The notes beneath the pieces were generated by a model. The model did no database searches and had not been told where the DNA came from. It saw nothing but the letters and a program-made list of their open reading frames with translations. The translations under genes and the position numbers were made by a program. A stretch of 4,288 bases of DNA from Escherichia coli (GTDB taxonomy: Bacteria > Pseudomonadota > Gammaproteobacteria > Enterobacterales > Enterobacteriaceae), in NCBI RefSeq assembly GCF_003334385.1, contig NZ_QOWN01000087.1; one strand, given 5' to 3'. Each line of letters begins with the position of its first letter. Within the stretch, counting starts at the first letter, position 1. Shown here piece after piece: positions 196 to 4,123 of the stretch.

Positions 196-587
196 AGCTA
201 ATACTGCCTTTTCCGCCCAGCGTGAACACGTACTGGCGACACCCCAACAAAGGGGCGTTTGCTGGTAAGAGCCTGATAAGCGCGGCGGGGCGAAAATTCC
301 AGAGCGCGGCGTGTGCAGCAATAGTTGAGCAGTTACGTCGTCTGCCGAAACCAACGTCGGCACCTGCTTCAGTGGAGATCGTGTTGTTTCCTCCGGATAA
401 CCGGATCCGCGATCTGGACAACTATAACAAGGCGCTGTTTGACGCCCTGACCCACGCGGGTGTGTGGGAAGACGACAGTCAGGTGAAAAGAATGCTGGTG
501 GAGTGGGGACCGGTTATCCCGGAGGGGAAGGTCGAGATCACTATCAGTAAGTACGAAAAAGCGAGTTGCAAATTAGCAACTCGGTAA
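192..587 (+). CDS. rusA: Crossover junction endodeoxyribonuclease RusA (Holliday junction resolvase), lambdoid-prophage type
   Basis: 131-aa ORF from ATG 192 to TAA 585-587. Conserved RusA blocks: LILPFPPSVNTYWRH (compare E. coli RusA ITLPWPPSNNRYYRH), acidic catalytic block RDLDNYNKALFDALTHAGVWEDDSQV (compare [27 protein letters not shown]), and C-terminal EGKVEITISKY (compare GGRLELTITEM). Confidence 0.88.
   Translation: MKLILPFPPSVNTYWRHPNKGAFAGKSLISAAGRKFQSAACAAIVEQLRRLPKPTSAPASVEIVLFPPDNRIRDLDNYNKALFDALTHAGVWEDDSQVKRMLVEWGPVIPEGKVEITISKYEKASCKLATR
494..501 (+). other. Chi octamer 5'-GCTGGTGG-3' (RecBCD recombination hotspot sequence), inside rusA
   Basis: Exact octamer read directly at 494-501 (codons atg ctg gtg gag tgg). 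Functional activity is inferred. Confidence 0.6.
562..583. other. Perfect 8-bp stem / 6-nt loop hairpin at the 3' end of rusA; on the minus strand it is followed by C+T5 (terminator-like for leftward transcription)
   Basis: cgagttgc (562-569), loop aaatta (570-575), gcaactcg (576-583); all 8 pairs are Watson-Crick. The + strand has no downstream T-tract. The - strand has TTTTT (complement of A556-A560) right after the stem. Confidence 0.35.
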
Positions 588-632
588 CGGAATTGAGCAA
601 CACCCTAAATTTGGGTATTACCTCGTTAAAGA

Positions 633-652
633 TACTGTATTTATGAACAGTG
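633..652. promoter_or_regulatory. Candidate LexA (SOS) box upstream of the KilA-N/antirepressor-like gene
   Basis: TACTGTATTTATGAACAGTG matches the E. coli LexA box consensus TACTGTATATATATACAGTA at 16 of 20 positions, with the invariant CTG (635-637) and CAG (648-650) at the correct spacing. It lies in the AT-rich rusA/kilA-N gap, about 100 bp upstream of ATG 750. Confidence 0.55.
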
Positions 653-657
653 TATCC

Positions 658-686
658 TTGATAACTATTAAAAATCGCAGTAAGTT
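658..686 (+). promoter_or_regulatory. Candidate sigma70 promoter for the KilA-N gene (-35 TTGATA 658-663, 17-bp spacer, -10 TAAGTT 681-686)
   Basis: Hexamers read by eye immediately downstream of the LexA box. The -10 is a weak match. Alternative: -35 TTGGGT 611-616 with -10 TACTGT 633-638 overlapping the box. No experimental support. Confidence 0.25.
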
Positions 687-749
687 CATCCTGCATCAAC
701 GAAAAGGGAGTGCAGTCCCGCTCGTGGATAAAAATTTGTGGAGAAACCA

Positions 750-1565
750 ATGAATCAGTTGCTTGTAATTGATGGCGTTTCTGTGCGCCAGTACTTCGAA
801 TCTAACTACTGTCTTAACGACCTTCAGAAAGCTGCTCTTCTTGCCGCTGGTGAGAATCGCTCCTCCCGTTCGCTGGAAGTTCACGAGTTTATGCGTCGTC
901 CTGAAACGAAGGCTCTTGTGGAATTATTGGAAGAAGAAACTACGGGAGATTCCCGTAGTATTCCTGTCATCACCATTCAGGGGCGCAATGGTGGGACGTA
1001 TGTCTGTAAAGAGCTGGTCTATGCATATGCAATGTGGATCAGCCCGGCATTCAGCTTAAAAGTGATACGTACTTTTGATGCGCTTCATAATTCATCACCA
1101 GAAGAAACCACATCCGACAAAATTAAATCCGGGGTCATTCTGCTTGAATCAGCAGCAAAGACTCTAAATCTGTCAAACTCCTCGAAACTTGGTGCATACC
1201 AGAAATTATCAAAGGTAGCTGGTCTTCCTGAACTTATGCCGATCTATGCCATTGATGCACCTGCTGATGCGCCAGATGGTTCAAGCCGCCCTACGCTGTC
1301 GCTGAGTGCACTGCTGAAGCAGTATGGTATCCGCCTGACGGCTAATCAGGCATATCACCAGATGGCGAAGCTGGGGATCGTTGAACAACGCGAACGATAC
1401 AGCCGTACCGCGATTAACAACATCAAAAAATTCTGGTCGCTGACAGCGAAAGGCTGCATGTTCGGCAAGAACATCACCAGTCCTGCAAATCCGCGCGAGA
1501 CGCAGCCGCATTTCTTCGAATCCCGATTCCCTGAGCTGTTAAAGCTGCTCGATACCGTTCATTGA
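750..1565 (+). CDS. KilA-N domain protein with antirepressor-like C-terminal region (Roi/Ant-like phage DNA-binding protein)
   Basis: ORF to TGA 1563-1565. ATG 750 is preceded by GGAG (740-743) with a 6-nt spacer. The ORF track extends to GTG 738, which overlaps the SD and is less likely. The N-terminal half (NQLLVIDGVSVRQ...GTYVCKELVYAYAMWISPAFSLKVIRTFD) looks like a KilA-N fold. GC is about 50%, like the flanking nin genes. Confidence 0.7.
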   Translation: MNQLLVIDGVSVRQYFESNYCLNDLQKAALLAAGENRSSRSLEVHEFMRRPETKALVELLEEETTGDSRSIPVITIQGRNGGTYVCKELVYAYAMWISPAFSLKVIRTFDALHNSSPEETTSDKIKSGVILLESAAKTLNLSNSSKLGAYQKLSKVAGLPELMPIYAIDAPADAPDGSSRPTLSLSALLKQYGIRLTANQAYHQMAKLGIVEQRERYSRTAINNIKKFWSLTAKGCMFGKNITSPANPRETQPHFFESRFPELLKLLDTVH

Positions 1566-1566
1566 G

Positions 1567-2562
1567 GTGACCGTGAGAGCACTACTGACCCCTGAAATTG
1601 CCCCGCGTATGGGGATCGTATTGTTCAGGCCAGGTTCAGAGCTGATGCCCCTGTTTATGCAGGGGCGTGTCCTGCTGGAGCCTGAGCCGGAACGTTATTC
1701 ATCTTTTGCCAGTGGTGCCGTTCCGGCATCATCACAACCGCTGGCGGATGATCCTGCCGTTCGGGCCGTGTTCCGCCATGAGGCGGTGATCCGTCGTGCT
1801 GGTGGCGTGGAATGCCTTGAGAGCTGGTTACTTCGTGAAAAGGGCTGTCAGTGGCCTCATTCCGACTGGCACAGCGAGAACATGACCACAATGCGGCACG
1901 CGCCAGGCGCAATCCGTCTGTGCTGGCACTGTGACAATCTTCTCCGTGACCAGTTCACGGAACGGCTGGAAGCAATGGCAACGGATAACTGTGCCCGCTG
2001 GGTGTTATCTGTTGTGCGCCGTGATCTTGGTTTTGATGACAGTCACGTTGTGACAATGCCGGAACTGTGCTGGTGGCTGATTCGTAATGACCTGGCGGAT
2101 GCCTTACCGGAAAGTGCAGCCCGTAAGGCACTGAGATTACCGAAGCCTGTTGTGCCGTCTGTCACCCGGGAAAGTGACCTTGTGCCTTCGGTTCCTGCCA
2201 CCAGCATCATCCAGGATAAGGCGAAAAAGGTGCTGGCGCTGAAAGTGGATCCGGAGTCGCCGGAGTCTTTTATGTTACGCCCAAAACGTCGCCGCTGGGT
2301 TAATGAAAAGTACACGCGCTGGGTTAAGACACAGCCGTGTGCATGTTGTGGAAAGCCTGCTGATGATCCCCACCACCTGATAGGCCACGGTCAGGGTGGT
2401 ATGGGGACAAAAGCGCATGACCTTTTTGTGTTGCCGTTGTGCAGAAAACACCATGACAAACTGCATGCGGATACCGTGGCATTTGAAGAGAAGTATGGTT
2501 CCCAACTGGAGCTGATATTTCGTTTTATCGATCGCGCGCTGGCGATTGGTGTGCTGTCCTGA
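1567..2562 (+). CDS. DUF968-like prophage protein with C-terminal Cys/His cluster (putative HNH/zinc-binding nuclease-like domain)
   Basis: Long ORF ending TGA 2560-2562. Start is uncertain: GTG 1567 (1 nt after the upstream stop), GTG 1573 (GAGG 1564-1567 as SD, 5-nt spacer) or ATG 1609. C-terminal motif [23 protein letters not shown]...[11 protein letters not shown] is typical of DUF968 proteins found between nin genes and Q in enterobacterial prophages. Recognition by eye. Confidence 0.7.
1798..1805 (+). other. Chi octamer 5'-GCTGGTGG-3'
   Basis: Exact octamer at 1798-1805 (cgt gct ggt ggc gtg) inside the DUF968-like gene. Confidence 0.6.
2069..2076 (+). other. Chi octamer 5'-GCTGGTGG-3'
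   Basis: Exact octamer at 2069-2076 (ctg tgc tgg tgg ctg) inside the DUF968-like gene. Confidence 0.6.
2198..2205 (-). other. Chi octamer on the minus strand (+ strand reads CCACCAGC)
   Basis: Exact reverse complement of GCTGGTGG at 2198-2205. It is the only one of the six in this orientation. Confidence 0.6.
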
Positions 2563-2579
2563 TTTTGTGGAGAAAGTTG

Positions 2580-3656: not shown

Positions 3657-3745
3657 GGGATATAAAGATACCGAGGAAATGATTTGTGTTATAACAAAAA
3701 CCATCTTAATCTGTTAAGAGTGGTCACTCCGTCATACAGCTTAAA

Positions 3746-3767
3746 CCTGCCGCCTGGCGGGTTTTTT
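3746..3767 (+). terminator. Rho-independent terminator downstream of the 205-aa cargo ORF
   Basis: Stem CCTGCC (3746-3751) pairs with GGCGGG (3756-3761), including one G-U pair; loop GCCT (3752-3755); followed by TTTTTT (3762-3767). Confidence 0.55.
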
Positions 3768-3798
3768 ATGCCCAAAATCGCGTCAGTACAGTAAACAC

Positions 3799-3806
3799 GC
3801 TGGTGG
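3799..3806 (+). other. Chi octamer 5'-GCTGGTGG-3' (intergenic)
   Basis: Exact octamer at 3799-3806, between the first terminator and the small ORF. Confidence 0.6.
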
Positions 3807-3889
3807 TTGCGAATACGGGTCTTTCAGCTTGCTGGCTTTTTCGACAAGAGTTATTGGTGTGTCACGTTAACCGGAAAAGGGAAAAAGAC

Positions 3890-4087
3890 ATGCTAAAACA
3901 GCAGGATATGACAGAAACCGCCAGAGTGGTGTTTAATGAATTAAGTGCCACCGAACCGGCGACAGTCGGGGAGATTGCGCAGAATACTTACCTTTCACGC
4001 GAACGCTGCCAGTTAATACTGACCCAGCTGGTTATGGCGGGTCTGGCAGACTATCAGTTCGGTTGTTACAGACGCCTTCCGCAGTGA
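3890..4087 (+). CDS. Small hypothetical protein (65 aa) with winged-helix/HTH-like segment; possible DNA-binding regulator
   Basis: ATG 3890 has a purine-rich SD-like AAGGG (3877-3881) with an 8-nt spacer; stop TGA 4085-4087. The ORF track extends to GTG 3803 with no SD, which I consider less likely. Segment TVGEIAQNTYLSRERCQLILTQLVMAGLA has the look of a helix-turn-helix recognition unit. GC is about 50%. Family not recognised. Confidence 0.5.
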   Translation: MLKQQDMTETARVVFNELSATEPATVGEIAQNTYLSRERCQLILTQLVMAGLADYQFGCYRRLPQ

Positions 4088-4101
4088 AGGCTTTTTTATT
4101 T
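4074..4101 (+). terminator. Rho-independent terminator overlapping the stop codon of the small ORF
   Basis: Stem GCCTTC (4074-4079) pairs with GAAGGC (4086-4091); loop CGCAGT (4080-4085); followed by TTTTTTATTT (4092-4101). The TGA stop at 4085-4087 spans the loop/stem junction. Confidence 0.6.
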
Positions 4102-4115
4102 GTGGTAAATGGGCG

Positions 4116-4123
4116 GCTGGTGG
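4116..4123 (+). other. Chi octamer 5'-GCTGGTGG-3' inside a G/T-rich tract
   Basis: Exact octamer at 4116-4123, embedded in gggcggctggtgggtgtggtggttgttg just after the second terminator. Confidence 0.6.

Follow-up and report, generated by a model that had tools for sequence, protein, structure and literature searches.

A 4,288-nucleotide (nt) stretch of Escherichia coli DNA (contig NZ_QOWN01000087.1; the whole stretch is called the window hereafter) carries six exact copies of the Chi octamer, 5'-GCTGGTGG-3', five on its + strand (at 494, 1798, 2069, 3799 and 4116) and one on its − strand (at 2198), all of them where a first-pass annotation of this DNA had placed them. The window belongs to a lambdoid temperate phage, of which it spans the distal early-right (nin-type) region, the Q gene and the leader of the late operon. 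Our analysis supports the conclusion that the density of Chi in this segment is a real, selected feature, and the six sites are probably where a selected array, filling the genome from the immunity and replication genes to cos, is densest. We consider it likely that the window comes from a lambdoid phage of the 'no Rec module, high Chi' type, represented by phage LLS, and that the Chi array serves recombination driven by the host enzyme RecBCD. We stress that the pattern, its polarity, its link to absent phage recombination genes and the proposed mechanism are all already known (Bobay, Touchon and Rocha, PLoS Genet 2013, PMC3784561; Zheng, Casjens, Davidson, Amundsen and Smith, Genome Res 2025, PMC12315714). 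Given that the array fits the published class and that the window matches the relatives named for it, the finding is an instance of a described class. It is a clean example, in which the Chi excess survives codon-aware null models.

Chi octamers in the window and its relatives

The window contains one Chi per 0.7 kb, compared with one per 4.6 kb in E. coli K-12 (PMC12315714). The same host density is found in the DNA flanking a related prophage of strain FDAARGOS_144 (15 Chi in 69 kb, or one per 4.6 kb); relative to this flank the window is approximately six times denser, which bears out the several-fold excess first proposed, and the part of that prophage from cro to cos is approximately three to four times denser. 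Dinucleotide-preserving shuffles of the window contain a mean of 0.16 Chi, and none of 200 shuffles reached six. Chi is also the commonest octamer of the window, with five top-strand copies against three for the runner-up. Variants of Chi with one mismatch are not enriched in the window (four besides the exact sites, against approximately 3.2 expected), and the excess is therefore specific to the exact octamer.

The excess is present in both coding and non-coding DNA. When synonymous codons were shuffled within each gene, a check that the first-pass annotation had proposed, the Chi count was not reproduced: three sense sites and one antisense site are observed against 0.88 and 0.05 expected, or four in total against 0.93 (P(total>=4)=0.0009). 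Most of this expectation is due to a single site, Chi 2069, whose Cys-Trp-Trp reading makes it nearly forced by the protein sequence. The non-coding DNA, 680 nt in all, holds two Chi against 0.013 expected (P ~1e-4). Chi 2069 (top strand) and Chi 2198 (bottom strand) point inward over 120 bp within the same gene, which encodes a DUF968/HNH protein, and a break between them would find a correctly oriented Chi on either side.

The window matches thousands of E. coli prophages, together with phages SfIV, SfII, PhiR49_1, Ayreon, mEp460_4F5 and 2H10 and several Stx2 phages, and its close relatives are all phages or prophages of E. coli or Shigella, hosts whose RecBCD recognises Chi. As a mosaic, it consists of segments with 97-100% identity to different relatives, the best partial match being contig L015, which is 100% identical over positions 2249-4288. 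No identical full-length match was found in 5,426 complete E. coli genomes (the best were 92% identity over 97%, or 98% over 75%), and the DUF968 protein of the window has no exact sequence on record. The complete relatives share the order int, early-left, cI/cro, replication, nin, Q, lysis, terminase, head and tail, and the window has the corresponding nin-type region with RusA, KilA-N, DUF968 and Q. In all complete relatives the lysis genes and then the terminase genes follow Q on the same strand; in the standard lambda orientation, the + strand of the window therefore corresponds to the top strand of the phage, and the window lies approximately 10 kb to the left of cos.

In 23 close relatives, five of the six Chi are intact in almost all genomes that align, with occasional single-base losses. 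Chi 494 is intact in all 14 fetched relatives with an alignment over the position (L001-L014), and Chi 2069 is kept in all relatives. Chi 1798 is intact in most relatives and reads ACTGGTGG in L016 and L018, while Chi 2198 is kept in nearly all of them and has become CCACCAGT in L004 through a synonymous change of AGC to AGT. Chi 3799 is likewise intact in most relatives; it is replaced by GCTGGCGG in the stx2-carrying L017, L019, L020 and L022, which keep Chi 4116, and this is a single-base loss specific to that lineage. The relatives that carry the same Chi sites include plaque-forming or inducible phages, namely SfIV, SfII, Ayreon, PhiR49_1 and an Stx2k phage.

A more distant comparison is offered by the DUF968/HNH homologue of phage LLS, which has 56% amino-acid identity with the protein of the window. 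Among the window sites, only the protein-forced Cys-Trp-Trp Chi is retained there: the Ala-Gly-Gly Chi (1798) has been lost despite conserved amino acids and the bottom-strand Chi is absent, and a new top-strand Chi occurs at a position where Leu-Val stands in place of the Leu-Leu of the window. Judged from these alignments, Chi sites turn over while their number is kept up, as expected under selection on density.

Regional and strand distribution of Chi

Seven annotated relatives contain 8-18 Chi per genome, against approximately 1.3-1.9 expected, with 6-14 on the top strand and 1-4 on the bottom strand (75-91% top). Pooled over 103 loci, we counted 98 unique Chi sites, of which 78 are top-strand and 20 bottom-strand. 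In the relatives Chi is restricted to the early genes, the lysis genes and the DNA between them; the head and tail genes have few or none. In L001, L003, L004, L006 and L007 nearly all Chi are found in the stretch bounded by the early region and the lysis genes, after which come 24-34 kb without Chi. The FDAARGOS_144 prophage (L001) has 17 Chi in 20 kb and none in its other ~26 kb, which hold the terminase, head and tail genes; the Chi-free stretch measures 33.7 kb in PhiR49_1 and 24 kb in the Stx2k phage.

The excess is regional, and correcting for protein sequence and codon usage does not remove it. For seven genomes, including that of LLS, we held the proteins fixed and redrew the codons from structural-gene usage. 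From cro to Q, 41 top-strand Chi are observed against 10.4 expected and 17 bottom-strand Chi against 1.37; from Q to terminase, the counts are 12 against 5.1 and 3 against 0.83. The structural genes have 6 top-strand Chi against 7.6 expected and 0 bottom-strand Chi against 1.8, and the leftward-transcribed early-left genes have 9 against 0.58 and 0 against 1.95. The within-gene codon shuffle agrees with this regional test.

The strand bias has to be read together with gene orientation. All genes of the window are on the + strand, and for such genes the codon-aware null models predict a top:bottom bias of approximately 6-18:1. Over the rightward genes of the genomes tested, the observed ratio of 2.4:1 is below the 7.6:1 predicted from gene orientation; the 5:1 bias of the window alone is therefore no evidence of polar selection. 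The first-pass annotation had pointed to this skew as well as to its direction. The direction stands, since the + sites have the polarity that fits RecBCD entering from the right cos end, and the size of the skew is no more than codon-aware null models predict. Polar selection is nevertheless real, because the leftward genes carry top-strand Chi, which are antisense there and contrary to codon expectation.

Bottom-strand Chi show a pattern of their own. They are confined to the DNA from cro to the lysis genes: 105 kb of structural genes and 48 kb of leftward genes contain none, and from cro to Q they exceed expectation approximately 12-fold (per-genome Poisson P 0.001-0.05). If confirmed on a large independent panel, two points could refine the published picture: that the evidence for polar selection lies in the leftward rather than the rightward genes, and that the enrichment near the replication and nin genes extends to bottom-strand Chi.

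Phages without recombination genes and the probable role of Chi

Lambdoid phages that have neither a recombinase nor a RecBCD inhibitor over-represent Chi in the nin region, from the replication genes to terminase, at densities of up to three times that of the core genome (PMC3784561). The phages of that study resemble the window in the location of Chi, in the association with a missing recombinase and inhibitor and in a density several times that of the host core genome; the study differs from ours in that strand and orientation were not analysed and that oligonucleotide models were used rather than codon-aware null models. The later work isolated phage LLS and defined Class A, 'no Rec module, high Chi', by at least four (usually at least eight) top-strand Chi, few bottom-strand Chi, clustering at the right end, and an early-left operon without a gene for a strand-annealing protein, an exonuclease, a single-strand DNA-binding protein or an anti-RecBCD function (PMC12315714). 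With five top-strand sites and one bottom-strand site, the window alone already has the Chi count of this class, and the clustering of top-strand Chi at the right end is seen in L001, L003, L004, L006 and L007.

The window and its relatives share with the LLS class the lambdoid gene order, many and mostly top-strand Chi toward the right end, and Chi as the top-ranked octamer. The relatives carry a yfdP/yfdQ/yfdR-type early-left operon, as does LLS, and here too the operon is without recombination genes: a scan of the 10 early-left proteins of L001 against PHROG profiles found no recombinase or anti-RecBCD family, only families of unknown function and a nucleotidase. Homologues of Exo, Bet, Gam, NinB and NinG are absent from all 103 loci, a search by sequence that did not extend to Erf, Sak, Sak4 and Abc2. 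Furthermore, mEp460_4F5 and 2H10, both matched by the window, are named relatives of LLS (PMC12315714). LLS itself shares only the diverged DUF968/HNH gene with the window; it also has no recombination gene in its nin region (PMC12315714), whereas the window encodes RusA. A phage-borne RusA beside reliance on host RecBCD and RecA may represent a sub-type of the Rec-less class.

RecBCD enhances the growth of LLS and of three other isolates, Chi stimulates recombination in LLS, the active orientation of Chi is set by cos, and the strand polarity and right-end clustering in LLS-type phages are explained by entry of RecBCD at the right end after cos is cut (PMC12315714). RecBCD dependence is a feature of LLS, and we carry it to the phage of the window by analogy. 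During lytic growth, terminase would cut cos and remain on the left end, leaving the right end, on the lysis-gene side, open to host RecBCD, which would travel left through the lysis genes, Q and the nin region. The phage would lack both Gam and Abc2 as a means of blocking RecBCD, and would encode no recombinase. Chi on the top strand, reached from the 3' side, would turn RecBCD from degradation to the loading of RecA, and this switch would both protect the phage DNA and initiate the recombination by which packageable concatemers arise. A given Chi is recognised in only some encounters, and a series of sites would make conversion almost sure before RecBCD arrives at the replication and immunity genes; the Holliday junctions that result would be resolved by the RusA of the window. 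The polarity of the window supports this reading by analogy with the published model: as the first-pass annotation had claimed, the + sites are oriented for a RecBCD that enters at the right end and moves left, given that the + strand is the phage top strand with the right cos end downstream (PMC12315714).

Two other phage systems offer parallels. The chi+ mutants of lambda red gam (Kobayashi et al. 1982, cited in PMC12315714) involve the same octamer, the same active orientation relative to cos and the same host enzyme; they carry single, laboratory-selected sites in a naturally Chi-less phage, whereas the window holds a natural array of many sites. Phage P1 has 50 Chi in 94.8 kb and requires RecA and RecBCD (cited in PMC12315714). 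It resembles our proposal in exploiting RecBCD-Chi recombination for its own replication cycle, and differs in that it is non-lambdoid, uses Chi for recombination between terminal repeats and follows another packaging strategy.

Several points weigh against reading the array simply as a defence of the right cos end in a phage without a Rec module. The window ends before the early-left operon, so that the lack of a Rec module in its own phage is carried over from the relatives. The open reading frames (ORFs) of the regional test were called by a simple rule on the annotated strand and are annotation-guided. The six to seven genomes compared share many Chi by descent, so that the summed counts overstate independence; the unique sites behind the sums are roughly five top-strand Chi in leftward genes and four to six bottom-strand Chi. 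Orientation pressure of the host type, acting in the prophage state, is not fully separable from selection on the phage, since two of the prophages are co-oriented with most nearby host Chi. Finally, the enrichment of bottom-strand ('inactive') Chi from cro to Q is unaccounted for by right-end entry alone. This last point leads us to a tentative and rather improbable extension, in which bottom-strand Chi are themselves selected and confined to the DNA from cro to the lysis genes, implying a second, rightward route of RecBCD entry (e.g. from rolling-circle tails or breaks near the origin), and in which individual sites such as Chi 4116 may also mark exchange joints of late-region modules (stx, methylases, esterases).

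A related explanation holds that Chi near the replication genes serve mainly in the repair of broken forks, rolling-circle tails and two-ended breaks rather than at cos ends, so that both orientations would be useful. It could account for the 12-fold excess of bottom-strand Chi from cro to Q beside their absence from the structural and early-left genes, and for the conservation of the inward-facing pair 2069/2198; it also agrees with the concentration of Chi nearer the replication origin in Rec-less phages, for which a role in fork and break repair was suggested (PMC3784561). We nevertheless find it unlikely, because it predicts bottom-strand Chi to the left of the origin, where the early-left genes have none (1.95 expected) against nine top-strand sites (0.58 expected), because top-strand Chi run on through the lysis genes up to cos, and because the bottom-strand signal comes from so few unique sites.

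The remaining explanations fare far worse than RecBCD-driven recombination. The idea that codon usage, gene orientation and base composition produced the cluster, with Chi itself not under selection, is very improbable. CTG and GTG are indeed frequent among codons, Cys-Trp-Trp forces site 2069, and the strand ratio of the rightward genes does not exceed the codon-based one; however, the codon-preserving shuffles speak against it (P ~0.001 for coding and ~1e-4 for non-coding sites), as do the structural genes, which share the strand, have comparable codon usage and are at expectation, the failure of one-mismatch variants to share in the enrichment, the rank of Chi as top octamer, and a control in lambda, in which both strands of the half from int to cos (21.5 kb) are free of Chi.

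Chi limits RecBCD-dependent acquisition of spacers by CRISPR systems, and the sites might have been selected for this or to shield cargo genes after Q, as the first-pass annotation suggested. Its observation that Chi 3799 and Chi 4116 flank a 65-codon ORF just after Q (3890-4087), each approximately 25-35 nt past a hairpin and U-run, is accurate and is what speaks for this idea. The proposal as a whole has very little to recommend it, since both sites persist in L004, which is without the AT-rich cargo ORF that precedes them in the window, since this cargo ORF is itself Chi-free, and since in every relative the array reaches from the early region right through to the lysis genes. Least credible is the same annotation's other suggestion, amelioration, by which an old resident prophage would have gained Chi in drifting toward host composition: cryptic prophages may accumulate Chi (PMC12315714) and 10 of the 15 host Chi flanking the FDAARGOS_144 prophage are co-oriented with its top strand, but free, active phages carry these sites too, the ~26 kb of late genes in that prophage have none and head and tail genes overall only 6 against 7.6 expected, the array is three to six times denser than the host flank, and the window is without insertion sequence (IS) elements or pseudogenes.

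The mosaic joint at Chi 4116 and other features of the window

Chi 4116 lies on a joint at which related genomes part. The relatives L001, L004 and L007-L023 are common up to GCTGGTGG-GTGT at 4116-4127 and beyond it branch into at least three modules unrelated to one another, namely a SASA esterase, an N6/N4 methylase, and a helix-turn-helix regulator with tRNAs and stx2. The ends of homology blocks adjoin Chi 4116 in 29-39 of 49 occurrences. We ran an all-versus-all junction test on 103 loci in three versions, and the candidate rule that top-strand Chi generally lie at the right edge of conserved blocks, where a RecBCD moving left would find Chi on entering homology, was rejected for lack of directional enrichment. 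Chi were found within 15 nt of 11 of 604 right block ends, against 1.4% at random; 12 Chi were found at hard junctions against 9.0 expected (P=0.2); and among 71 unique + sites, five adjoin a right end and six a left end. Bottom-strand Chi adjoining left block ends are somewhat over-represented (5 of 18), in junction groups that are not independent. The joint at Chi 4116 therefore stays an anecdote and not a general rule. Many stx2 prophages share the Chi-rich linker near Q, and Chi-driven exchange there could bear on movement of the toxin module, an exchange for which the junction test gave no support as a general rule.

Two arrangements of paired Chi were also observed among the relatives. 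In L008 (11074-11106), and also in L016, L018, L021 and L023, the Chi equivalent to 4116 forms with an inverted Chi a perfect 10-bp inverted repeat, GGCTGGTGGG...(11 nt)...CCCACCAGCC; in other relatives the right arm is degenerate (TCACCAGCC), and the window is without the repeat. In L006 (42173-42186) and 16-18 other loci, a 14-nt perfect palindrome, CCACCAGCTGGTGG, consists of two overlapping, opposed Chi around a CAGCTG core. It sits in a DNA methylase gene downstream of Q, and the start of a homology block adjoins nearly every occurrence.

The genes of the window, assigned by PHROG profiles, form a RusA–KilA-N–DUF968/HNH–Q–late-leader segment (Table 1).

Table 1. Chi octamers, genes and terminator-like elements of the window
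Feature	Position	Strand	Remarks
Chi	494..501	+	in RusA gene; ATG CTG GTG GAG, Met-Leu-Val-Glu
Chi	1798..1805	+	in DUF968/HNH gene; GCT GGT GGC, Ala-Gly-Gly
Chi	2069..2076	+	in DUF968/HNH gene; TGC TGG TGG, Cys-Trp-Trp; almost protein-forced
Chi	2198..2205	−	in DUF968/HNH gene; CCACCAGC on +; GCC ACC AGC, Ala-Thr-Ser
Chi	3799..3806	+	non-coding, conserved linker after Q; ~35 nt 3' of terminator-like hairpin
Chi	4116..4123	+	non-coding; 25 nt 3' of terminator-like hairpin; exactly on mosaic joint
3' end of LexA-like DNA-binding protein gene	1..195	+	phrog_362 transcriptional repressor, E=6e-30; LexA family regulator in relatives' annotation
RusA Holliday-junction resolvase gene	192..587	+	phrog_34, E=6e-58
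KilA-N / antirepressor-like regulator gene	750..1565	+	phrog_129, E=4e-109; Pfam KilA-N in relatives
DUF968 / HNH-nuclease-like gene	1567..2562	+	phrog_96, E=2e-175; PF06147 in relatives; holds three of the six Chi
Late antiterminator Q gene	2580..2972	+	phrog_79, E=3e-47; PF06530 in relatives
AT-rich 205-codon cargo ORF	3039..3656	+	phrog_8498, function-unassigned family
Terminator-like hairpin, 9-bp stem + U-run	3743..3770	+	-13.4 kcal/mol, z = -2.1
Conserved 65-codon ORF between Chi 3799 and 4116	3890..4087	+	phrog_331 (unknown function), E=2e-37; in nearly all relatives
Terminator-like hairpin, 6-bp stem + U-run	4074..4101	+	5' of Chi 4116

The cargo ORF at 3039-3656, which separates Q from the conserved late leader, has 38% G+C, against 48-57% in the adjacent genes. 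Its similarity is limited to a weak match to the WYL domain (PADLOC E=1.5e-4; Pfam i-E=0.056). It behaves like a moron because it is present in some relatives and absent from others (L003 and L004, both of which have kept the Chi sites), and it is not essential to the Chi cluster. A scan of the window against Rfam matched no family. The KilA-N protein has a weak PADLOC match to PDC-S22 (E=7.5e-10), and in many relatives the first ~245 nt of its gene (750-992), together with the upstream spacer (564-992 in all), are swapped for unrelated sequence; alignments stop at ~560-563 and restart at ~975-993.

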